64,000 nucleotides of DNA from Escherichia phage vB_EcoM-UFV09. Of the stretch, positions 5,821 through 63,516 are shown one piece after another. The notes below the pieces were generated by a model. The model did not search any database and was not told where the DNA came from. It saw only the letters and a program-made list of their open reading frames with translations. Where the stretch lies: the sequence record MZ291552.2. One strand, written 5' to 3'. Made by a program: the position numbers and the translations under genes. Each line of letters starts with the position of its first letter. Position 1 is the first letter of the stretch.

Positions 5821-6102
5821 TTAATTGAACAGTGGAGCGATGCGTTTCAGAAGAGTAGCAGCACCTTTAGCGAATTTTACATCATGAAAAACAGTTTCTT
5901 CTTCCGTTACAACACGAGCTTTAATGTTTTCACAATCCCAATTTTTGCGAACAATCTTCAAAAGCTGCAGTAAATCTTTACATTCAACAATATCGATAAC
6001 ACATCCACGAGAATCTTCCATTATCGCACGATAACCGTAAGCCATACCATAATCGTTGAAAGATTGCTCGATGATAATTAAGTTTTCCATTTTATTCTCC
6101 AA
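5821..6102 (-). CDS. hypothetical protein
   Basis: 93-aa ORF preceded by GGAGAATAAT-ATG and an early-promoter-like repeat. Confidence 0.45.
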   Translation of the reverse strand: MENKMENLIIIEQSFNDYGMAYGYRAIMEDSRGCVIDIVECKDLLQLLKIVRKNWDCENIKARVVTEEETVFHDVKFAKGAATLLKRIAPLFN

Positions 6103-6187
6103 GTTATTTTCTGTATCAGTAGTTGATATTGATATAGTACCATAATCAACTACTGATGTATATAGTTTTATGAAAAAATTTTAAACT

Positions 6188-17353: not shown

Positions 17354-17521
17354 TTTTACTCTTCTTTTTCTTTAGATTCCTCTTTTTTCTTTTTAGGAAT
17401 CTGTTCAGGACCTTTATTTACTACAGCACCTGATGTTGTTCCAGTAGAGATATTTTCAGGATTACCACCTGAATCTCCAGCAACCATATCTTCTTTAATA
17501 AATTCTTTATATGTTTTCATA

Positions 17522-17878
17522 TTAACCTCTATTCATAAAAGCATTAAAAATTTGGTCATCAATCGATGGAATAGCAACTTTTTCTGCATCATTTAGCAAA
17601 TCATTAATTTCATCAGATAGCATAACACATGTACCTTTATTTCCTGTAATTGTTACTGCACAATTACGAACGTTTTCTTTATTAAATTTTAGGTTAATAT
17701 TTTCGTAATGAAAATCCTTTAATGCTGAATATATTTTTAAAATAAAATTGTCTTTTACTACAATAAACCCAACCTCACTATTAAAACGTGGTTCATGGAA
17801 ACTGTAATAAACCTTTTCATCTATAAAATCGTATGAAATTTTTTCCATTTTTAAATATGAAAATTCAGAACTATACAT
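17522..17878 (-). CDS. hypothetical protein (61.1/61.2 region)
   Basis: 118 aa; C-terminal tail SIDDQIFNAFMNRG shared with the next ORF. Confidence 0.45.
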   Translation of the reverse strand: MYSSEFSYLKMEKISYDFIDEKVYYSFHEPRFNSEVGFIVVKDNFILKIYSALKDFHYENINLKFNKENVRNCAVTITGNKGTCVMLSDEINDLLNDAEKVAIPSIDDQIFNAFMNRG

Positions 17879-17879
17879 A

Positions 17880-18521
17880 TTAACCTTTATTCATAAAAGC
17901 ATTAAAAATTTGATCGTCAATAGAAACTTTTACTTTAGGATGTTCTTCAAACGGTAATTCATATCCACATATTACAATTTTGTGATCGATACCAAAATAC
18001 ACAGAAGCAATATGATTAATATTATTTTCAGTGAAATCTAAATCAACATCAATATCTTTTTGACTAACGCTCAAAGGATAATTAATACGAATAATTCGAT
18101 TATCTTTAACAAAGATTCCACCGACATACTCTGTGTTGCGTTTAAAGTTTACACGTTTCCTAAATGAAAAATATTCAGGTTCTTTATGAGCCCGACTCAT
18201 AGGACACAATGAGTAGCTAGAATAAGAGATGTCAAATCCTACACCTTCAATATGAGCCAACGTGTCATGATTAAACCAATTATAATCATACGCCAAATCC
18301 ATTATATTGTAATATGTGAAAGGCACCGGATTAACATCATATATTGTACCTTTAAAATCTGCCCAGGCAACGATTTCATTATCTTTAACAATTACAAAAA
18401 TTGTGCCAATAAGATATCCACGGTTATTTTCATCAGGCGTTATATTATAACATTGTGCATCAGGAAATTTACCGTATTTAAACGGTGGATTTTTGTGCAT
18501 ATAATAAATCATATTATTCAC
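17880..18521 (-). CDS. hypothetical protein (61.1/61.2 region)
   Basis: 213 aa; C-terminal tail SIDDQIFNAFMNKG shared with the previous ORF. Confidence 0.45.
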   Translation of the reverse strand: MNNMIYYMHKNPPFKYGKFPDAQCYNITPDENNRGYLIGTIFVIVKDNEIVAWADFKGTIYDVNPVPFTYYNIMDLAYDYNWFNHDTLAHIEGVGFDISYSSYSLCPMSRAHKEPEYFSFRKRVNFKRNTEYVGGIFVKDNRIIRINYPLSVSQKDIDVDLDFTENNINHIASVYFGIDHKIVICGYELPFEEHPKVKVSIDDQIFNAFMNKG

Positions 18522-24773: not shown

Positions 24774-24783
24774 AATAATTTCC

Positions 24784-25020
24784 TCAAATACAAGTAGTAA
24801 TTACTCCAGTAGTGCTTACACAGGTATTACCTAATTGAACACCCAACGTTCCATTAGTATTCATATGAAGATTATCATCAATTTTTGTTGATACTTTACC
24901 ATTCATGTGAATAATAGTATTAGATTCAATCACATTCTGAGTGTCATTTTCAATATCAATAAATGGAACAGTTGCTAATGCAACTAAACACACTGCTAAA
25001 CAACCATAAACAATTTTCAT
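24784..25020 (-). CDS. small secreted hypothetical protein
   Basis: Trimmed to MKIVYGCLAVCLVALA... (78 aa, signal peptide) behind GGAGAATAAA-ATG; the longer track ORF reads through the promoter repeat. Confidence 0.45.
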   Translation of the reverse strand: MKIVYGCLAVCLVALATVPFIDIENDTQNVIESNTIIHMNGKVSTKIDDNLHMNTNGTLGVQLGNTCVSTTGVITTCI

Positions 25021-25174
25021 TTTATTCTCCAAATCCGTATCAGTTGATAGTTGTATAGTACCATGGAAGAACGGGGATGTAAATAGTTTTGTGAAAAAAT
25101 TTTTAATGAATTTACAGGACCTAGAATCATCTATTTTTCCTAAGTATAGATTTATATTACTTGTATGAAAAAGG

Positions 25175-25193
25175 GACCCGGAGGTCCCTAGAT
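25175..25193 (-). terminator. stem-loop terminator downstream of gene 43
   Basis: gggacc-cgga-ggtccc hairpin preceded by an A-run on the plus strand. Confidence 0.5.
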
Positions 25194-25201
25194 TTATTCT
25201 A

Positions 25202-27898
25202 TCAGCCAAACAGGAAGTCTAACGAAGCTTTTTCCTCATAGTCCATACCTGCCGATTCACACATGCCCGCAAGCGGTTTAACAAACGATTTTTGGAACAA
25301 AGTTGAGTAGTCAATCCAAGATAGTACGTCAGAACGAATTTCTTTTGGAAGTTCCGTACCCGATGGCCAAGCAATGCACTTGTCACCAAATGGATTTCCC
25401 TCACGTAACGGAAGAACCATTACCTTATTTCCATCCAAAATTGGAGCTACACCTAAACCGCTAACAGCTCGACGATAAGTTAGCACCCCACGAATATGGA
25501 ACGGGCATTTAAACCCTGGCCAACCTTTATCGTCATATTTCGCTATATCGTTCGCGGTTTTTACTTCAGCAATAACTTTATAGTCAAGTTGACGGTATTC
25601 TTTCTCAAAGTTCTTATAGTATTCTTGGACAGACTCTTCGCCTTCCTGAAGAATACGACGAATACTTTCTTCGAGAGCTTCTTGCACTGCTTTTGGTGTT
25701 GAACTCTGCTGAGTTTCCATACCCATGATTTTTAGATGTGGTTCAGCGAATCGCTTATCTTCCATATCATAAACGTTCAGAGCATAACGCTTTTTCGCTT
25801 TCCAAAATCCACCAACGCCCTTTGAACCAAGTGGAGGGCAAGAAATAGCTTCACGGTCCATATGCATCAGATGCTCGCGGTTATTCATATAATCACATAA
25901 CTCACGATATGCAACATCAATCATAGGTTCCATCTTTTTCTTACCGAACTGATTCATGAATTCAACTAAATCGTTCTGCTCTTTGAATCGGTCAAGACCA
26001 ACTTTTTCAATAACTTTATCTACACAAACATATACCGAATCAGTATCACCTGCTGCAATGAAATCTTCGCCATTAGTTCCGCACACTTTATTCAGATACT
26101 CATTAATTTTACGAGCAATCCACTGAATACCAACTTGGCCGAAAATTGTGATAGCAGTAGCATTTCGCAAATCATAGTAACGGAAATGAATATTACCAAG
26201 AGCACCATAAAGACTGTTAATAAGAATTTTACGGTTCAGCTGATTTGTGTTAGCAAGTGTAGCTGCTTTTTCACATTCTTCAATCAAACTATTGAGAACA
26301 GATTCAGTGTAATTCGATAATTCATTTAAGAAATCATCGCTGAACTTAACATATCGTTCAACTTCTGGTTTAGTTGAACAAGACCCTGCACCTTTCATAA
26401 TAATCTTTTTAATAGCTTCGGCATTCATTTCTTCAGCGAACATTTTCTTTTTCCAATCTTTACGCTGGAAAAATACTTTAGCGATTTCCTTTGGAATGAT
26501 ACCTTCTTGATGCTTATCATACATCCATCCATTCGGAGAACAAGAATATTCATCACTTGGCTTAGGAGCTGTTCCTGCGATATATTCATGAATTGGATGA
26601 ACTTTAAACTGACCACGAATAGTTTCAGGACTAATGTTAACCTGGCGAATAATGCTCGGATACAGAGACGTCAAGTCAAAACTCATAATATATCGACGAG
26701 CAATTGGTTTAGGTTCAAACACAAATGCACCCGGAAAACTCTGTTTAACGTGTGAACCTTGTTGAGGAATAACCTTATGTTCACCTTTCAATGAGTTAAA
26801 AATAATAGCATCCCAAGTTTTAATAGGACTCATTACACCAGAAAAAGGCATTTTAGCGTAATAAGACATACTTAAAACTAGATCAATAAACCCACGAATT
26901 TTATCAATTGCTTGAACTGATTCTACGTCAATGATGTTATAACTAATGTATCGTTGATGATTAGTCTCACGAAGTTTATTAATAGGACCGTCGTATGGTA
27001 ATTTACCTTTTTTGGTTTCATGCTGAGCAACTGATTCCAAAGAGAATGACGGCAAATTAGTAAATGCGAATTTCTTATACAAATCTAAATAATCAAGAAT
27101 AGATACGCCATCAATAGAATAAATTTCTTTGCTACCGTACATATTTTGGATAAGTTTAGATTTTACTCGACCGATTGGAGAGAAGCGTTTCATACTGCGT
27201 TCACCAAGAACCATTTTAACGCGATTCATGATATACGGAACGTCAAATCCCTCAATATTCCAACCAGTAAAAATAGCAGGTCGTTTCTGTTCCCAGAGAT
27301 TGATATATTCCATGAGCATATCACGCTCATTATCGAATGGCATATAAATTACTCGGTCAAGAATTTCTTGAGGAACTTCATCACCACCTTCACAGTCAAG
27401 CTTAGCAGCTAACTTTGCATCCCATTTTGATACTGAACCGTACATTGAATTCAAAAGGTCGAAAACATAAAAACGATCATCAATTGAATCATAATGAGTG
27501 ATAGCATCAATTTCATATTCTGCTTTCATTGGGTCAGGAAATTTATCACCAGTAACCTCAATGTCACAGTTAGCTACACGAACAAATTTTCGGTCATAAA
27601 CAATTTCTGAACCGTATGTATCACTGATATAAGCGAGTTTAAAATCGTTCATACCGAGAGCTTCGAGACCGATGTCTTCCATTCGCTTCATCCAATCTCG
27701 AGCATCTTTCATTGATGGAAATTTTTGAGGAGCGCAATTTTTACCATAGATGTCTTTGTATTTTGACTCTTCCTTACAATGCCTAAACATAGTTGGAAGA
27801 TATTCTACTTCACGAGTACGTTCCTTTCCGTTTTCATCAATATAACGTTCAACAATGTTATTTCCGACTGTTTCAATAGAGATATAAAATTCTTTCAT
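25202..27898 (-). CDS. 43: DNA polymerase (family B)
   Basis: 898 aa, T4 gp43 size, with 3'-5' exonuclease and polymerase motifs. Confidence 0.95.
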   Translation of the reverse strand: MKEFYISIETVGNNIVERYIDENGKERTREVEYLPTMFRHCKEESKYKDIYGKNCAPQKFPSMKDARDWMKRMEDIGLEALGMNDFKLAYISDTYGSEIVYDRKFVRVANCDIEVTGDKFPDPMKAEYEIDAITHYDSIDDRFYVFDLLNSMYGSVSKWDAKLAAKLDCEGGDEVPQEILDRVIYMPFDNERDMLMEYINLWEQKRPAIFTGWNIEGFDVPYIMNRVKMVLGERSMKRFSPIGRVKSKLIQNMYGSKEIYSIDGVSILDYLDLYKKFAFTNLPSFSLESVAQHETKKGKLPYDGPINKLRETNHQRYISYNIIDVESVQAIDKIRGFIDLVLSMSYYAKMPFSGVMSPIKTWDAIIFNSLKGEHKVIPQQGSHVKQSFPGAFVFEPKPIARRYIMSFDLTSLYPSIIRQVNISPETIRGQFKVHPIHEYIAGTAPKPSDEYSCSPNGWMYDKHQEGIIPKEIAKVFFQRKDWKKKMFAEEMNAEAIKKIIMKGAGSCSTKPEVERYVKFSDDFLNELSNYTESVLNSLIEECEKAATLANTNQLNRKILINSLYGALGNIHFRYYDLRNATAITIFGQVGIQWIARKINEYLNKVCGTNGEDFIAAGDTDSVYVCVDKVIEKVGLDRFKEQNDLVEFMNQFGKKKMEPMIDVAYRELCDYMNNREHLMHMDREAISCPPLGSKGVGGFWKAKKRYALNVYDMEDKRFAEPHLKIMGMETQQSSTPKAVQEALEESIRRILQEGEESVQEYYKNFEKEYRQLDYKVIAEVKTANDIAKYDDKGWPGFKCPFHIRGVLTYRRAVSGLGVAPILDGNKVMVLPLREGNPFGDKCIAWPSGTELPKEIRSDVLSWIDYSTLFQKSFVKPLAGMCESAGMDYEEKASLDFLFG

Positions 27899-47264: not shown

Positions 47265-48296
47265 TTACTTAATTAACTGTAAAGCTTGTTCAAGACGATC
47301 AAGACGATTAACGGATTCTTCCCAAATCTTTTTAGCCTTCTCATATTCTTTCTGTGCTTTATTAGAAATTTCTAGAGCTCCTTTATAAGCTTTTTCTAAT
47401 GCAATAATTTCTGGACGAATTTCTACCGGTTCAGGCGAATCATCAAGATTATCCATTAGTTCCTCAAGGGTAGTTTCTTCTTTAGGGGTATTCACAATTT
47501 CTTCGCATTTTTGTTGGTAAATTTCTTTATCAGTCGGTGAATACGCACATTTCACTTCACGAAGACTAACTACAATTTTGTATCCTTCCCAACCACACAT
47601 ATTCTTAAAAGGATATGTATGAATATTTTCTACTGTTTCCATACAAAGTAATGCAGTCTCTAACTGACGAGTTATAGTGCTAGCAATTGAGAAAAATTTA
47701 TTAATATTCTTTTGGTTAGCGTTTGGTGTAAAAAATCCATAATTCACAAAAATAGCTACTTTATTTTCGTCAAGCTCATATTCTTTTACGATAATCATAT
47801 CAGAAGCCAAAGGATGAATTTGACGATAATCGCCATAACATAATTTAGAAGCTGATTTTAGAATTTGTCCTTTGAAAAGTCTGAAATTACTAATCCAACG
47901 ACGAGTAAAAATATTCTCAGGGTCTTCTTTATTATTAAGATGATAAGAATTAACATCACCGAACCAATTGTATCCTACTACATTTTTAGTTCGTTTAATT
48001 TCTTTCCCAAATTTACCAAGAATATCTCTGTTAACTAAATATGAAAGAAGACGAGACCCTTTAAAGGTTTCCTTAATATCATCTTTATCTGCACGACTAG
48101 AAATTTTATGAACTTCATGAATAAATTTGCTGGAAGAAACAATGCTTGCATCAGTATTATTGAGCCATTGATTGATAATAGAAATAACACTATTCTGACT
48201 AGACATAGGTTTAACTTTATCATCAATAACGCTATTGAATGATTTGATATATTCGTTGCGAGTCATATTAATCTCCTCAGTAGAAAGTAAGAACAT
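47265..48296 (-). CDS. hypothetical protein with C-terminal coiled coil (member 2 of 4)
   Basis: 343 aa; C-terminal coiled-coil-like tail. Confidence 0.5.
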   Translation of the reverse strand: MFLLSTEEINMTRNEYIKSFNSVIDDKVKPMSSQNSVISIINQWLNNTDASIVSSSKFIHEVHKISSRADKDDIKETFKGSRLLSYLVNRDILGKFGKEIKRTKNVVGYNWFGDVNSYHLNNKEDPENIFTRRWISNFRLFKGQILKSASKLCYGDYRQIHPLASDMIIVKEYELDENKVAIFVNYGFFTPNANQKNINKFFSIASTITRQLETALLCMETVENIHTYPFKNMCGWEGYKIVVSLREVKCAYSPTDKEIYQQKCEEIVNTPKEETTLEELMDNLDDSPEPVEIRPEIIALEKAYKGALEISNKAQKEYEKAKKIWEESVNRLDRLEQALQLIK

Positions 48297-48324
48297 TATA
48301 CCACATCCTTGTGGCGAAGTAAAC
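48295..48324 (-). promoter_or_regulatory. T4-type early promoter
   Basis: Minus strand reads GTTTACttcgccacaaggatgtggTATAAT. Confidence 0.5.
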
Positions 48325-49343
48325 TAGTTTAGTGCATTTAGTGCATTGTTCAATTTAGAACGTTGCTTTGTCAGATTTTGAACCCTTGACTGAGCTTGTT
48401 CTAACACCTTTTCAGCTTCTAGCACTTCATTGGTCGCTTTAATGAGTTCAGCATCTACTGCCTTAAGAGACTTCTCAATCGCGTCAGCGTGCCATTTTTC
48501 TACAGGTTTAAAATTTGAATTTTCAGTAGGAAGAAAATTCACTTTATTAAATTTCCATGCATCTTTATTACCTGAGCTATACATCCAAAATTTAGGATCG
48601 TTTGATGAGCAATTAGATAAATTTAAGTTATCTTGTACTTCCTGCTTTTTCTCTTGCGGGACTTCATCCTTTCTCAAAAAATCGTATTTAAATGAAACGA
48701 TCATATCAAGTTCATACGTTGTTGTATGTTCCCAATTTCGCTCAAAATGAGGTAAAATCTTAGACTGAACAGCGGCAACAACATCCATATACTTAAATGC
48801 TTCTGTCAACTGTGATTTAAGGCATTCACAAATTGAAAGAGAATTTTTTGTATTAGGCTTAAAGCTAATTCGTGCAGTTCTATTATTTTCTTTTAACGGT
48901 CTTACTTCCATCTGAAGAGTATAACCATCAAATTTCAGGTTCTTTAAGTTAATGTCAGAACCTTTTAATCGACTAGCAGTAGACAAAATTTGCTTTAATT
49001 GTTTACGGAATAAAGCAATAAATCTCCATTCAAGACGATAATGATTTGGATTAAAAAATCCTGTTGATAAATCAACCTTACTCTGACCAACGCCTTGAAC
49101 AAATAGAGGATTTTTATAATCAATAGTTTTACAGAAATCGGTGAGCTGCTCACGAGCAGTCATTTGTGTAATATATCCCGCTTTACTAAAATGACGTAAC
49201 CATTCACTGCTATTCATATACTTAAAGTGAATGGAACTATTAACTCTATCAGGGTCTAAATTATTTTGGCACAAAAATGTCATAACATTACGGGTATAGC
49301 TAGCATTACGAACCATATCTTCAATTTGAGAACGAGTTTTCAT
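48324..49343 (-). CDS. hypothetical protein with C-terminal coiled coil (member 3 of 4)
   Basis: 339 aa; C-terminal coiled-coil-like tail. Confidence 0.5.
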   Translation of the reverse strand: MKTRSQIEDMVRNASYTRNVMTFLCQNNLDPDRVNSSIHFKYMNSSEWLRHFSKAGYITQMTAREQLTDFCKTIDYKNPLFVQGVGQSKVDLSTGFFNPNHYRLEWRFIALFRKQLKQILSTASRLKGSDINLKNLKFDGYTLQMEVRPLKENNRTARISFKPNTKNSLSICECLKSQLTEAFKYMDVVAAVQSKILPHFERNWEHTTTYELDMIVSFKYDFLRKDEVPQEKKQEVQDNLNLSNCSSNDPKFWMYSSGNKDAWKFNKVNFLPTENSNFKPVEKWHADAIEKSLKAVDAELIKATNEVLEAEKVLEQAQSRVQNLTKQRSKLNNALNALN

Positions 49344-50709: not shown

Positions 50710-51237
50710 TTATGCGAGTACCGTCTTTAACCGTTCTTCAAACTTCCGAAGAGTATTCTGGCGTTCAGCTCTTTGCTTTTTGTAAGTTTCAATACGCTCT
50801 GAAATGAGAGTGTATCGTTCATTTACTGATTCTTTCATAAAATCAGGAATTTCACGAGAAGCTTTAATCTCGTCAAATTTATCAATAACAGCTTGCTCTT
50901 CAGCAATTAAGTTATCATACATCAAAATATCTTTCTTGATGAACTCAATATCTTCTTGAGTTACACGAGATAATTTAAATGCTTTATCCTTTTTGTACTG
51001 TTCGTTAGTATCACGAGACCAGTGTAATGTACGATTTTTATTCGTATTCTTATAAATTTCTACAATACCAATATCATCAATAATAACGATCCAATTCCAA
51101 CGGGATTTGTAAATTTGTCCTCCATCAACTGTGATTTCACCTCCGATTGAGATGTCATTAAAGAACTTGCTTTGTGCTTCTGATTTAAATTTACCATCGT
51201 TGTAATTTACCAAGTTGAAAATATCTTTAGCGTTCAT
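50710..51237 (-). CDS. hypothetical protein
   Basis: Trimmed to MNAKDIFNLV... (~175 aa); the track ORF reads through the promoter repeat. Confidence 0.45.
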   Translation of the reverse strand: MNAKDIFNLVNYNDGKFKSEAQSKFFNDISIGGEITVDGGQIYKSRWNWIVIIDDIGIVEIYKNTNKNRTLHWSRDTNEQYKKDKAFKLSRVTQEDIEFIKKDILMYDNLIAEEQAVIDKFDEIKASREIPDFMKESVNERYTLISERIETYKKQRAERQNTLRKFEERLKTVLA

Positions 51238-51297
51238 TTTCTGTTCCTCCGTAGTTGATAGTTGTATAGTACCACAGAGGAACAGTCTTGTAAACAA

Positions 51298-51701: not shown

Positions 51702-52670
51702 TTATTTCAGAAGAGTAACCTCAGCGATTTCTTCCCAACCGTTTTTGTCGGTCATAATAAAGTCAGCAAGATAAAGAGCAGTACGCAGTGAAACATTGCG
51801 TAAACGATTAACATTGACTTTCATCCATGATAATGCTTTATAAGTTTCTTCATCAGAAAGACCGCGCTTTTGCATCATGTCAGTTGAAAGAATAACATCT
51901 TCAACCCTGACCATAATTTCTTCATTAGTGTGAACACCCAAATCCAAATAAACTGAGCGGGACACTAATGCTTGTAAATGTGGAGCAAGTTTAGTACCAC
52001 GGTCTAATTCGCGGTCAATGTCAACGTTTGTGATAAAAACAATCGTTCCTTTAAATTCAAACTCACGCTCAATGCCTTTTTCTTCTAAGTAAGAAGATGC
52101 AGTGCTCCAGCAGACTTTACGGGTCTCTCCAGTGTCCAGAGCAGCTTTCAGAAGATTAAGAATGTCCATATCAGAGAAAACATCCACATCATCAATCAAA
52201 AGGACAGAATTCTCTTCACGATTATTCCAAAGCTGCTCATAAAGACCAATACCAGAGATTTTACCATTAATGCTTTTATATTCAATGTATCCAATATCAT
52301 TTGCTTTATTTAAAGCTTTATCTAAAGAATACGTTTTACCAATACCCGCCGCACCAGAGATAATTAATGAACGAATGTTTCCGTTAATAATACCATTCGT
52401 CATCATTCCCATAACATTAAATCTTTTATTAATGCGGGTTTTCATATCTTCATATGATTCTTTAACTTCTTCAACTTTTACACCATCATATGAAATGTCT
52501 GATTTGTAAACCCAAACACCGCGACGTTTACCGTCAATTTCAACAAAAACTTTACCATCTCCTTGTGCATCTACTGGGGCATTATCAGGGAACCACTCAC
52601 CTAAGAGTTCAAAAGTTCCAGAGATTTCTTTGCCAAAGTAGATACCCTTATTGATAGTTACAGTTTTCAT
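51702..52670 (-). CDS. P-loop ATPase (AAA+-like)
   Basis: Trimmed to MKTVTINKG... (322 aa); Walker A GAAGIGKTYS, Walker B VLLIDDVD. Confidence 0.55.
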   Translation of the reverse strand: MKTVTINKGIYFGKEISGTFELLGEWFPDNAPVDAQGDGKVFVEIDGKRRGVWVYKSDISYDGVKVEEVKESYEDMKTRINKRFNVMGMMTNGIINGNIRSLIISGAAGIGKTYSLDKALNKANDIGYIEYKSINGKISGIGLYEQLWNNREENSVLLIDDVDVFSDMDILNLLKAALDTGETRKVCWSTASSYLEEKGIEREFEFKGTIVFITNVDIDRELDRGTKLAPHLQALVSRSVYLDLGVHTNEEIMVRVEDVILSTDMMQKRGLSDEETYKALSWMKVNVNRLRNVSLRTALYLADFIMTDKNGWEEIAEVTLLK

Positions 52671-52765
52671 TTTATTCTCCAAATCCGTATCAGTTGATAG
52701 TTGTATAGTACCATAAAGCTTTATGCTTGTAAACTGTTTTGTGAAAAAATTTTTGAAATAAAAAA

Positions 52766-52784
52766 GGGAGCCCGAAGGCTCCCT
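52766..52784 (-). terminator. stem-loop downstream of the NTase-like gene
   Basis: gggagcc-cgaa-ggctccc hairpin after an A-run on the plus strand. Confidence 0.5.
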
Positions 52785-52785
52785 A

Positions 52786-53799
52786 TCATTTATAATAACT
52801 TCGGTGGTTTTCAAGATAGACCTTCTCAAGGAAGTCATCCCAGAAACCCATGTCTACTTTTTGCTGCATACCGTTCTTAGAAGCTTCAGTAGATGCTGCT
52901 TCTACTTGATCGACCACATCTTCCAAAAACTCTTGAACTGTTTTAAATGGATGTTTACCCAACTTCACGTCGAGAATAAATGGAGCGTCTTGAAGTGGAT
53001 AAACTAAGTCACCAGTTTTGTAAATTTCCAATAGTTGAAGTCCACCACGACAGGCATGGCTCAGAGCTTTCCAGTCAATACCTTCATTGGCTTCGGCCTT
53101 ACGAGCACGTTCACCATATTCAGCATCTAATTTGTTCAGTGACTGCTTAAGCTCAATAAGAGAAAGCGTTGTCTGATATTTACGACCCAACACAGTGTAG
53201 AACGTTTGTGGGCCTGTTTTCTCATGATTATGGAACACCCATTCACAGAATTCGTTTTCTGGAAGACGATGCTTAATATCTTCAATTTTAGTGCGACGTT
53301 GTCCTTGTGTTCCATCTTCTCGGTAGACATTCCGTTGATCAGGAATTTGATTAACTACTTTCAACACATCACGTAATGCAGCCAAACGAGAACCCTTGAC
53401 ACCGTATTTAGAAGCTTGCTTGCGAACATATCCTAAATAGGATTTCATGTTAGTCGTATAAAAACGAGAACGATTGTCTTGAATAAACTTCCACACATCA
53501 GGCAAATCAGATTTAACCACTAGTTCAGGTGGAGTGTGAAGCATATCCAATGCTACAGTTTCACCATCTGCTGCTAATTTAAAGAAATACTTAAGACTAT
53601 ACAATTCGTGGTCAATATCATCTTTAGTGTTTTTAGATGATGTGTTGTTAGTGTTTTTACTCATGTGCTCTTTGACATTTCCAATAAGAATATCGCGAGC
53701 AGGAGGAACAAAGATTTCTTTAAAATCTACATCAGATTCTGGAGTAGAAGTTCCATAAAGATGACTACCAAAATAGCTTTTCATTACTGTTTTCATCAT
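52786..53799 (-). CDS. nucleotidyltransferase-fold protein (Pol-beta-like)
   Basis: 337 aa; N-terminal G-S...D-x-D signature (YFGSHLYGTSTPESDVDF) with a downstream acidic residue (ETVALD). Confidence 0.5.
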   Translation of the reverse strand: MMKTVMKSYFGSHLYGTSTPESDVDFKEIFVPPARDILIGNVKEHMSKNTNNTSSKNTKDDIDHELYSLKYFFKLAADGETVALDMLHTPPELVVKSDLPDVWKFIQDNRSRFYTTNMKSYLGYVRKQASKYGVKGSRLAALRDVLKVVNQIPDQRNVYREDGTQGQRRTKIEDIKHRLPENEFCEWVFHNHEKTGPQTFYTVLGRKYQTTLSLIELKQSLNKLDAEYGERARKAEANEGIDWKALSHACRGGLQLLEIYKTGDLVYPLQDAPFILDVKLGKHPFKTVQEFLEDVVDQVEAASTEASKNGMQQKVDMGFWDDFLEKVYLENHRSYYK

Positions 53800-55872: not shown

Positions 55873-56112
55873 TTAAACTCTCGTATTGTGATCGATAATT
55901 TCATCAAGAAACATATCTAAAGCTTCCACAGCATTATCAACTTTAGCTTCAAGTTCATCAATACCTTTATTTGCAATGCCTGACGAAAACCAAGCAAAGT
56001 CGCTAAGTTCCTCATCTGCTTTACGAATTAAAGCTACCAATTCCTTAATTTTATCCGCTTGTTCGATACTAATCATTATTCCACCACATATGAAAGAGAG
56101 AATATTGCACAT
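55873..56112 (-). CDS. small hypothetical protein
   Basis: 79-aa ORF. Confidence 0.35.
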
Positions 56113-56309
56113 GCCATGTGAGTTGCAACTTCATCACACATATTATAACGTTTCTTAAGAAGTTCTACAAGTTTTTCACTAGTAACTTCATCCATGTTGA
56201 CGAAAAAATCACCATTAATGATGACGTAGATATTTCCTTCTTGATTGAGTGCTTCAATTTTCATGATGTTCTCCTCTTTATCCGATAGTTGTATAGTATA
56301 ACAGCTCAA
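56076..56309 (-). CDS. small hypothetical protein
   Basis: 77-aa ORF. Confidence 0.35.
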
Positions 56310-56337
56310 ACGGAAAGTAAACCGGTAAAATGAAAAA

Positions 56338-60002: not shown

Positions 60003-60464
60003 TCATTGAGTTTTAATTACTGCTTTAGAAGCCTTTCCTGGTAAACGACGACTGTTAATAATTGCCATCCTGCATTGAAGCGACGGGTCTTTGAACTTCG
60101 CATTAGGTTTACAAACTGTAAATCCAAGCCAAAGATTTCCATCTGTGATTTCTAAACGTCCAGGACGATATTCAACCCCATCAATAAAATCCTCGTCAAT
60201 GTCAGGACGCGGAGGCATACTCAGGAATTCATTAACTTCTAAAACATGGTCTTTTATTTTATGGAATAATTCAAAAACGTATGTCTCATCAATCTCCCGT
60301 TGAATTGCGCGATCAAGAAGATGTTGAGAATATTTTAGATGAAACGATGAGACCCCTGCTGCTTTTGATGCCTCACGAATCTCATTGTTAATTTGACGAA
60401 ACTCCGACTCAAAGTGACGACGAAGCTTATTTCGACGGATAAAAACTTCTGTGTTGATAGTCAT
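60003..60464 (-). CDS. regB: RegB site-specific endoribonuclease
   Basis: 153 aa, near-identical to recalled T4 RegB. Confidence 0.9.
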   Translation of the reverse strand: MTINTEVFIRRNKLRRHFESEFRQINNEIREASKAAGVSSFHLKYSQHLLDRAIQREIDETYVFELFHKIKDHVLEVNEFLSMPPRPDIDEDFIDGVEYRPGRLEITDGNLWLGFTVCKPNAKFKDPSLQCRMAIINSRRLPGKASKAVIKTQ

Positions 60465-60491
60465 GTTATTCTCCTCTTAACTGATAGAAAA

Positions 60492-60521
60492 ATTATACCA
60501 CAGTCAAGAGGAAAAGTAAAC
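60492..60521 (-). promoter_or_regulatory. T4-type early promoter
   Basis: Minus strand reads GTTTACttttcctcttgactgtggTATAAT. Confidence 0.5.
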
Positions 60522-62670: not shown

Positions 62671-63144
62671 TTATTTGAATGATTTAACGTACTGAATAGA
62701 ACCTTTACTATTCACAAAGGCAATTTTACCATTTTTGTTATACATAGTAGCAGTACGTTGATAGCCATAAGTTTGTTTACCAGATTGATAACCAACTAAT
62801 GCGAAATTATCTTCACCCATTTTATTCTGTTTAGCGCGAATGCGTTCATGACCATGTGCCATAAGAACCTTAGCATCACCAGTTGCAATGGACCGACGAG
62901 TTTTTTCATCTTCAACTGTATTAACAAAGTCGTCAAATGAATCAAATTTAGCATGAGATTTATTATACAGTTTTCCATCTACTGCATAATTATATCCTTG
63001 TACATCCATCTCAACTTCTGTACCATCATCTAATACCGCAGTAATTTTCTGTCCTTTTTTAAATTTCAAAAGATCAGTAAAAGATTCAGCAATAATTTGA
63101 GAATTAATAGCTGCTTCAGTAATAAATTCTTTATACGTTTTCAT
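62671..63144 (-). CDS. internal protein (IP-family, capsid-targeting leader)
   Basis: 157 aa; N-terminal MKTYKEFITEA matches the T4 IP capsid-targeting sequence; located between the vs genes and e. Confidence 0.6.
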   Translation of the reverse strand: MKTYKEFITEAAINSQIIAESFTDLLKFKKGQKITAVLDDGTEVEMDVQGYNYAVDGKLYNKSHAKFDSFDDFVNTVEDEKTRRSIATGDAKVLMAHGHERIRAKQNKMGEDNFALVGYQSGKQTYGYQRTATMYNKNGKIAFVNSKGSIQYVKSFK

Positions 63145-63160
63145 GTGTATCCTTTAATTT

Positions 63161-63478
63161 TTATTCTTTAGGGAAGTTTTTAGAATATGCATCATAAAGC
63201 TTATTTCCAATACGGCGGAAAACTCTAGCCGCAAAACGATTTTCTGGGTTTTTAATCATGATTTGCATCATATAAGTACCCGCGTCAGAAAGAGCTTCTT
63301 CATAGTACCCGTTAATTTCTTTAAGAGTCCTACGTTTACCACCAGGACCATCAACAGTGATTTTCCATTTACCTGTAGAAGTGCGACTTGGCGGTTCAAC
63401 TTGTTCAATCCAGATATAACCGCCTTCTACACGCTGTCCTGCAACAGATTCTGCAATAAATTCTTTATACGTTTTCAT
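63161..63478 (-). CDS. internal protein (IP-family, capsid-targeting leader)
   Basis: 105 aa; N-terminal MKTYKEFIAES; body unrelated to the neighbouring IP. Confidence 0.6.
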   Translation of the reverse strand: MKTYKEFIAESVAGQRVEGGYIWIEQVEPPSRTSTGKWKITVDGPGGKRRTLKEINGYYEEALSDAGTYMMQIMIKNPENRFAARVFRRIGNKLYDAYSKNFPKE

Positions 63479-63516
63479 GTGTTTCCTTTAAATATTTTAA
63501 TTAGTAACTGTGAATA

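Follow-up and report, generated by a model that had tools for sequence, protein, structure and literature searches.

The early promoters of bacteriophage T4 are defined by the succession of an UP element, a -35 element, a TGn motif and a -10 element (Hinton 2010). In T4-like phages, promoters of this kind also belong to composite motifs called PeSLs (promoter-early stem-loop cassettes), in which the sequence TTTACW-N17-TAYWAT lies downstream of a stem-loop and the 3′ end carries a Shine-Dalgarno (SD) sequence and an ATG; this is the definition given in two papers (Arbiol et al. 2010, PMC2839356; Comeau et al. 2014, PMC4122927), the second of which analysed the PST/T4 pair. A third body of work concerns the endoribonuclease RegB. 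According to Durand 2006 (PMC1702504), where 24 well-cut T4 sites are listed, the T4 RegB/S1 consensus is GGAGAAUAAAA, or GGAGRAYARAA, and the site is single-stranded and cut between G and A with S1 as cofactor; the same consensus was restated later (Uzan & Miller 2010, PMC3014915). The repeat analysed here very likely forms the conserved core of a PeSL cassette for early expression of the T4 type, providing a burst of expression followed by RegB-dependent shut-off, with copies kept alike by paralogy and exchange.

The window, i.e. the whole stretch of 64 kb that was analysed, matches Escherichia phage vB_EcoM-UFV05 (Tequatrovirus) at 100% identity, with record position = window position + 7, while the other Tequatrovirus records listed are 96.6-98.5% identical to it. 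Its G+C content is 31-37%, and the minus strand carries essentially all genes. For genome-wide counts, the complete genome (165,776 bp) was rebuilt from the public record. The preliminary description had reported a 44-nt block identical at 25021-25064 and 52671-52714. Both copies are exact, they are the only two occurrences, and no match was obtained in 100 dinucleotide-preserving shuffles. Exact identity between these loci, called A and B, in fact extends to 51 nt (25014-25064 = 52664-52714) and includes the ATGAAAA of both downstream genes; the two loci also share, without a mismatch, a separate block of 19 nt, AAAAATTTTTTCACAAAAC (25086-25104 = 52736-52754). Locus A has gene 43 (DNA polymerase) on one side and, on the other, ORF78, a 78-aa ORF preceding imm.1; locus B lies between homologues of T4 nrdC.11 and nrdC.10. 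The repeated block is real and probably functional.

Shorter copies had been claimed near 51250, 56284 and 6130 and were recovered at 51257-51294, 56284-56321 and 6125-6162 (loci C, D and F in Table 1); the copies before nrdC.10 (B) and nrdC.8 (C) are direct repeats 1,439 bp apart. The genome-wide motif search that had been proposed returned eight exact copies of TACTATACAACTATC, which comprises the -10 element and the first 9 nt downstream, as well as degenerate copies such as the one at 6139. All eight are on the minus (early) strand, half of them in the window (before ORF78, nrdC.10, nrdC.8 and mobD.5) and half outside it (before e.8, the gene after gene 32, motA and the gene after denB). 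A heuristic scan of the whole genome found ~33 early-type promoters on the minus strand versus 2 on the plus strand. The leader start CTATC(AAC/GG) is present in 12 of these ~33, which bears out the proposed promoter sub-family with a common leader. Alignment of the 12 members gives the consensus ...AAAAATTTTTCACAAAACTGTTTACA...TGTGGTACTATACAACTATCAACTACTGA...GGAGAATAAAATG, and the members are distinguished by insertions between ACTGA and GGAG; leader lengths after TACTATACAACTATC across the family are 18, 19, 25, 28, 32, 33, 34 and 35 nt. Among public sequences, the 54-nt cassette core was found at 1,630 places across 538 phage records.

Table 1. Coordinates of the cassette elements and associated genes in the window (all positions are window positions).
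Feature	Position	Strand	Remarks
Locus A, intrinsic-terminator hairpin after gene 43	25172..25189	-	7-bp stem with 5 GC pairs, followed by a T tail; supplies the stem-loop of the cassette
Locus A, UP element AAAAATTTTTTCACAAAAC	25086..25104	-	A/T-rich; identical to locus B; -40 to -60
Locus A, core promoter TTTACA-N17-(TGG)TACTAT	25055..25083	-	-35 at 25083-25078, TGn at 25063-25061, -10 at 25060-25055
Locus A, discriminator and 5′ leader ACAACTATCAACTGATACGGATTTGGAGAATAAA	25021..25054	-	predicted start near 25048
Locus A, GGAGAATAAAA	25020..25030	-	Shine-Dalgarno and perfect match to the RegB/S1 consensus; 11th nt is the A of ATG
Locus A, 78-aa accessory ORF (ORF78; phrog_4189, function unknown)	24784..25020	-	missing in T4, whose cassette lies directly before imm.1
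Locus B, terminator hairpin after the nrdC.11 homologue	52765..52784	-	8-bp stem, 6 GC pairs
Locus B, UP element AAAAATTTTTTCACAAAAC	52736..52754	-	identical to the locus A block
Locus B, core promoter (G)TTTACA-N17-(TGG)TACTAT	52705..52733	-	spacer contains the palindrome CATAAAGCTTTATG
Locus B, leader	52671..52704	-	identical to the locus A leader
Locus B, GGAGAATAAAA	52670..52680	-	SD and RegB/S1 consensus site
Locus B, nrdC.10 homologue	51702..52670	-	322 aa, P-loop ATPase-like, 99% identical to T4 NrdC.10
Locus C, promoter (51294-51266) and leader ACAACTATCAACTACGGAGGAACAGAAA	51238..51294	-	precedes the nrdC.8 homologue, CDS 50710-51237
Locus D, promoter (56321-56293) and leader ACAACTATCGGATAAAGAGGAGAACATC	56265..56321	-	precedes the mobD.5 homologue, CDS 56076-56264
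Locus F, degenerate copy: UP element, TATACA-N17-TGGTACTAT, type II leader, GGAGAATAAAA at 6100-6090	6090..6187	-	
regB gene (endoribonuclease)	60003..60464	-	tblastn match at 60006-60464, 99.3% identity over 153 aa to T4 RegB

Read on the minus strand, loci A and B display the same order of elements, namely terminator hairpin, UP element, TTTACA-N17-TGG-TACTAT, leader ACAACTATCAACTGATACGGATTT and GGAGAATAAA-ATG. The order GTTTAC, spacer, TACTAT, leader and ATG given in the preliminary description is thus right, but the base before TTTAC in copy A is an A (ATTTAC), not a G. At both loci, the A/T-rich AAAAATTTTTTCACAAAAC occupies the UP position between -40 and -60, a -35 (G)TTTACA stands 17 bp from the -10 TACTAT (25083-25055 and 52733-52705), and TGG immediately before TACTAT makes an extended -10 of the form TGn plus TAnnAT. 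All sequence features therefore fit the early-promoter interpretation that had been advanced, and orthology with T4 agrees with it. From the usual spacing, transcription is expected to start near 25048 and 52698, leaving a leader of ~28 nt. The promoters are presumably strong in this phage; with ATTTAC in copy A and TATACA in copy F as the -35 sequence, these two may differ in strength.

Orthologous positions in T4 carry the same cassette, which precedes imm.1, nrdC.10, e.8, nrdC.8 and mobD.5; the nrdC.10 cassette is the same as that of T4 from the -35 element to the ATG, and motA is preceded by the cassette in related phage contigs and in the rest of the present genome. In a time-resolved T4 transcriptome and proteome, imm.1, nrdC.8, nrdC.10, e.8 and motA are classed as 'early-RNA_early-Protein', and mobD.5 is early at the RNA level (Wolfram-Schauerte 2022 supplement). 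Because these T4 orthologues are experimentally early, the early-promoter interpretation gains support. As for public annotation, record OL960581.1 labels the site 'similar to phage T4 early promoter' and annotates a terminator at the same place as the locus A hairpin, and an old T4 record (L13089, msp1 = e.8) carries annotated -35 and -10 signals. The T4 reference records NC_000866 and AF158101 hold only CDS and RNA features at the locus and no curated promoter feature, and a literature search did not find transcriptome-wide T4 start-site data.

Two other roles for these sites, as MotA-dependent middle promoters or as part of a structured regulatory RNA (riboswitch or attenuator), are very improbable. 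Middle promoters also have TGn and a -10 element, but here a -35 (G)TTTACA is found at 17 bp and no MotA box (TGCTT) is centred at -30, so that a middle promoter is rejected on sequence. Regarding a structured RNA, Rfam searched at the gathering threshold over the whole window matched no family, the leader alone is unstructured (-0.9 kcal/mol, z +0.3), and the 89-104-nt mRNA 5′ ends fold no better than shuffles. This also holds for the 89-nt mRNA of locus B, in whose predicted fold GGAG pairs with coding sequence (z +0.15, no better than shuffles). A riboswitch or other structured RNA was rejected on these grounds.

Perfect inverted repeats were seen in and around early promoters; 14 of 31 promoters have a stem of 6 bp or more in the -35 to +17 interval, versus 18% of shuffles. 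The spacer ATCAGTAGTTGAT and the leader motif ATCAACTACTGAT at 6110-6157 are exact reverse complements of each other over 13 bp, so that the -10 element falls in the loop, and the spacer of the nrdC.10 promoter (52713-52726) is the palindrome CATAAAGCTTTATG. These repeats resemble the stem-loops over the -10 element described for the PeSLs of RB49/phi1. A second near-identical (94%) pair of early promoters is found at 2429-2460 and 48295-48326 (TTTACTT..CCACAAGGATGTGGTATAAT), with a CCACA/TGTGG hairpin in each spacer. Outside the window, at positions 118631 and 133939 of record OP572230.1, promoter and leader are identical over >50 nt (TTTACAAGTCCCTCGTGTTGTGTTATAATAATCTTACTGACATAACATGAGGA), which makes another duplicated type of cassette.

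The position of the cassette has consequences for gene starts. Mechanical ORFs at the two loci (24784..25209, 141 aa; 51702..52838, 378 aa) traverse the block in frame and both include the peptide GTIQLSTDTDLENKMK, and it could be argued that the block is coding and the long ORFs carry true N-terminal extensions, in which case GTIQLSTDTDLENK is the peptide that such an extension would contain. This reading has virtually no probability. Coding extensions would have to cross the terminator hairpin, the UP element and the promoter, the indels within the family are not multiples of three (leader lengths of 18-35 nt), a perfect SD stands at optimal spacing before the internal ATG, and the T4 copies of the block precede unrelated proteins annotated as starting at this ATG. 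True extensions were therefore rejected on the non-triplet indels and on the overlap with terminator and promoter. The opposite proposal, that the extensions are artificial, agrees with the GenBank starts of both genes, which are at the ATG after the SD. For annotation, this means that starts at cassette loci belong at the ATG following GGAGAATAAA and that ORFs running across the cassette are artefacts. One of them is the 37-aa 'hypothetical protein' UYE93013.1 of OP572230.1 (window 25017-25130, minus strand), which falls wholly within the promoter and leader of locus A and is almost certainly spurious; in the same record, the entire nrdC.x gene series is labelled 'thioredoxin'.

Pfam and PHROG searches with the downstream gene products returned only 'unknown function', plus weak P-loop ATPase matches for NrdC.10. 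An N-terminal hydrophobic segment is predicted in the product of ORF78. Elsewhere in the window, gene starts at 63115-63162 / 63449-63496 and at 17518-17566 / 17876-17924 are 90-92% identical and 334-358 bp apart; this suggests tandem paralogous small early genes.

The common strong ribosome-binding site that had been noted is present as GGAGAATAAA-ATG at both loci, at optimal spacing, and GGAGAAUAAAA is additionally an exact match to the RegB/S1 consensus. In the genome, GGAGAATAAAA occurs exactly seven times, against about 0.1 expected by chance. Each of the seven is on the early strand and adjoins an ATG, with an early-type -10 element 25-45 nt upstream. The three in the window (loci A, B and F) all fall within the cassette family. 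The properties expected of RegB targets come together at these sites, i.e. an exact 11-nt consensus, location in the intergenic SD of early transcripts, predicted single-strandedness and the presence of regB in the phage. Locus C, in front of nrdC.8, has a GGAG context deviating from the consensus; the T4 nrdC.8 site of the cassette family is also off-consensus (GGAGGAACAGA), and the published work describes it as only 'moderately cleaved' by RegB. Cleavage of the cassette sites in the present phage is a prediction drawn from sequence. The regB gene has an early-type promoter of its own (60472-60520) and an SD, GGAGAATAACA, that differs from the RegB consensus by one nucleotide; this near-consensus SD fits the published autoregulation of regB.

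Conservation of the site was assessed on 36 distinct nrdC.10 orthologue loci taken from viral contigs (61-100% protein identity), a set meant as an unbiased test. GGAGRAYARAA is found in register with the AUG at 18 of the 36. Over the 36 loci, mean pairwise identity reaches 0.705 in the SD decamer; the values are 0.66 at codon positions 1+2, 0.48 at third positions and 0.38 in the rest of the leader. Since the identity of the SD decamer exceeds that of the remaining leader and that of the codon positions, the 3′ end of the leader is under constraint.

The leader's 5′ half (ACAACTATCAACTGATAC) behaves differently, being conserved only inside the T4 group, and its sequence ACAACTATCAACT..GATAC is accounted for neither by the promoter consensus nor by the RegB site. 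Because it is not conserved across genera, it is attributed here to shared descent and recombination. One may go further and regard the identity of the copies as a mere footprint of recent ectopic recombination or gene conversion, with a functionless 5′ half and ordinary early promoters devoid of any regulation special to the sub-family. The chances of this view are evenly balanced. It draws on the mosaic structure of copy A, where the spacer ATCCCC resembles that of e.8 (ATCCCT) and not that of T4 imm.1 (AAGACT) although the leader is of the nrdC.10 type, on the swapped cassettes before identical nrdC.10 genes (see below), on the identity of only 0.38 across genera at leader positions -30 to -11, and on the ACT / ACTACT length variation, which looks like repeat slippage. 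What it leaves unexplained is the conservation of GGAGAATAAA above codon positions 1+2, in AUG register across genera. For the 5′ half it is compatible with the explanation preferred here and is not a true alternative to it; hitch-hiking likely explains the identity of this half.

A second possibility is that ACAACTATCAACT(ACT)GATAC, which spans ~+/-10 nt around the predicted start and is partly palindromic (TATCA..TGATA), acts independently as a cis-element, for instance as an operator or RNA target for a phage factor that shuts off or tunes this subset of early promoters. The sequence is common to about one third of the early promoters and is part of no described recognition element, and the mechanism by which T4 early promoters are shut off has been described as not completely understood. 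However, the spacing of the palindrome varies (N2 vs N5), its 3′ arm is missing in 6 of the 12 members, other genera do not conserve the element ahead of nrdC.10, and it has neither a stable RNA structure nor a match in Rfam. A dedicated element is accordingly considered improbable, and shared descent with recombination is retained for the 5′ half.

Evidence of exchange comes from comparisons with relatives. With respect to T4, a 247-nt insertion comprising ORF78 and its downstream SD is located exactly at the cassette ATG, bounded by 8-bp direct repeats ATGAAAAT (window 24774-25020 vs fetched T4 locus 1465-1712). ORF78 was found once each in 325 phage records, the locus query having matched 558 records; it is a presence/absence polymorphism in Tequatrovirus and is absent from T4. 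Locus F precedes an 89-aa ORF (5821-6090) that is missing in T4, and carries the longer (type II) leader, as T4 does before e.8. In viral contigs, the cassette after denB precedes different genes, encoding either MFTTAEL... or MKFKFYY..., and one contig joins an nrdC.10-type promoter, after TACTATACAACTATC, to another leader and gene. Conversely, nrdC.10 genes with 99-100% identical proteins have three unrelated promoter/leader cassettes upstream, all converging at GGAGAATAAAATG. The features of PeSLs are thus found together, with an early promoter and its adjacent upstream hairpin (25172-25189; 52765-52784), an SD and start codon at the 3′ end of the motif (GGAGAATAAA-ATG), and dispersal as eight exact cores plus degenerate copies associated with an indel at the cassette ATG and with cassette/gene swaps.

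Much of the cassette identity reflects modular recombination of the PeSL type and not selection on the whole leader. As to how copies exchange, the sequences support only a patch-wise type, as seen in the spacer of copy A. Concerted evolution within the genome was considered and rejected: AATAAA versus AATGAA in the SD does not co-vary, as T4 has A in e.8 and G in imm.1 and the reverse is found here. In Salmonella phage STML-198 (Gelderlandvirus, fetched locus 401-446), a -10 element and leader, TACTATACAACTATCAACTGATACGGATTCGGAGAATAAAAT, at 95.7% identity are found downstream of a modA/modB-like gene, without the UP and -35 part.

Taken together, a sequence of events can be proposed. The terminator hairpin would close the upstream unit, and the UP/-35/TGn/-10 promoter would be read by unmodified host sigma-70 RNA polymerase at once after infection. 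Starting about 7 nt past TACTAT, transcription would produce a CA-rich, unstructured leader of ~28 nt, whose end, GGAGAAUAAAAUG, would combine a strong SD at optimal spacing with an exact RegB/S1 match, GG^AGAAUAAAA. A leader so short and unstructured, with a well-spaced GGAG, would permit efficient initiation. RegB, itself an early product encoded in the window, would then accumulate and cut inside the SD with the help of S1, so that translation would end, decay would speed up and the mRNAs would be functionally inactivated. Cutting by RegB would make the sub-family co-regulated as an immediate-early burst followed by shut-off, and the co-regulation suggested for the sub-family is probably of this kind, expression followed by nucleolytic shut-off. 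The near-identity of the dispersed copies is probably kept because paralogous cassettes exchange segments by homologous recombination; the cassettes also act as junctions for the gain, loss and replacement of accessory genes and would be portable expression modules for them. It is possible that recombination at cassettes equips each new ORF with burst-then-self-destruct control. If so, this control would be automatic, and the published RegB consensus would in part be a product of cassette paralogy.

With regard to known systems, the cassette is a textbook T4 early promoter/leader of the PeSL type, already known and studied in T4, and the analysis restates known T4 logic, that of strong early promoters with RegB-sensitive ribosome-binding sites in portable cassettes that double as recombination junctions. 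What is added is limited to the explicit link between the cassette SD and the RegB/S1 consensus, and to the annotation consequences. The perfect RegB/S1 sites, three in the window and seven in the genome, all in the cassette family, provide a modestly useful synthesis in the form of a short list of predicted RegB targets. Their likeness to the RegB/S1 sites of T4 consists in the exact 11-nt match to the T4 consensus, cleavage being predicted for the sites of the present phage. In the available parts of the two PeSL papers (PMC2839356, PMC4122927), the PeSLs of T4-like phages are the same composite as the cassette (stem-loop, AT-rich region, promoter, SD and start codon); they are scattered over hyperplastic regions, at sites where close relatives differ by insertions, deletions or replacements, as is seen for the cassette. 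In those parts, the SD is not discussed as a RegB site, and PeSL mini-circles are shown for RB49/phi1, not for the present group. The T4 early promoters of imm.1, nrdC.10, e.8, nrdC.8, mobD.5 and motA share element order, sequence and orthologous positions with those described here, with no essential difference. Two departures from T4 stand out nevertheless: the gene 43 / imm.1 cassette, with its ATTTAC and e.8-like spacer, drives an additional ORF of 78 aa, and a further, degenerate copy (6090-6187) drives an ORF of 89 aa missing in T4.
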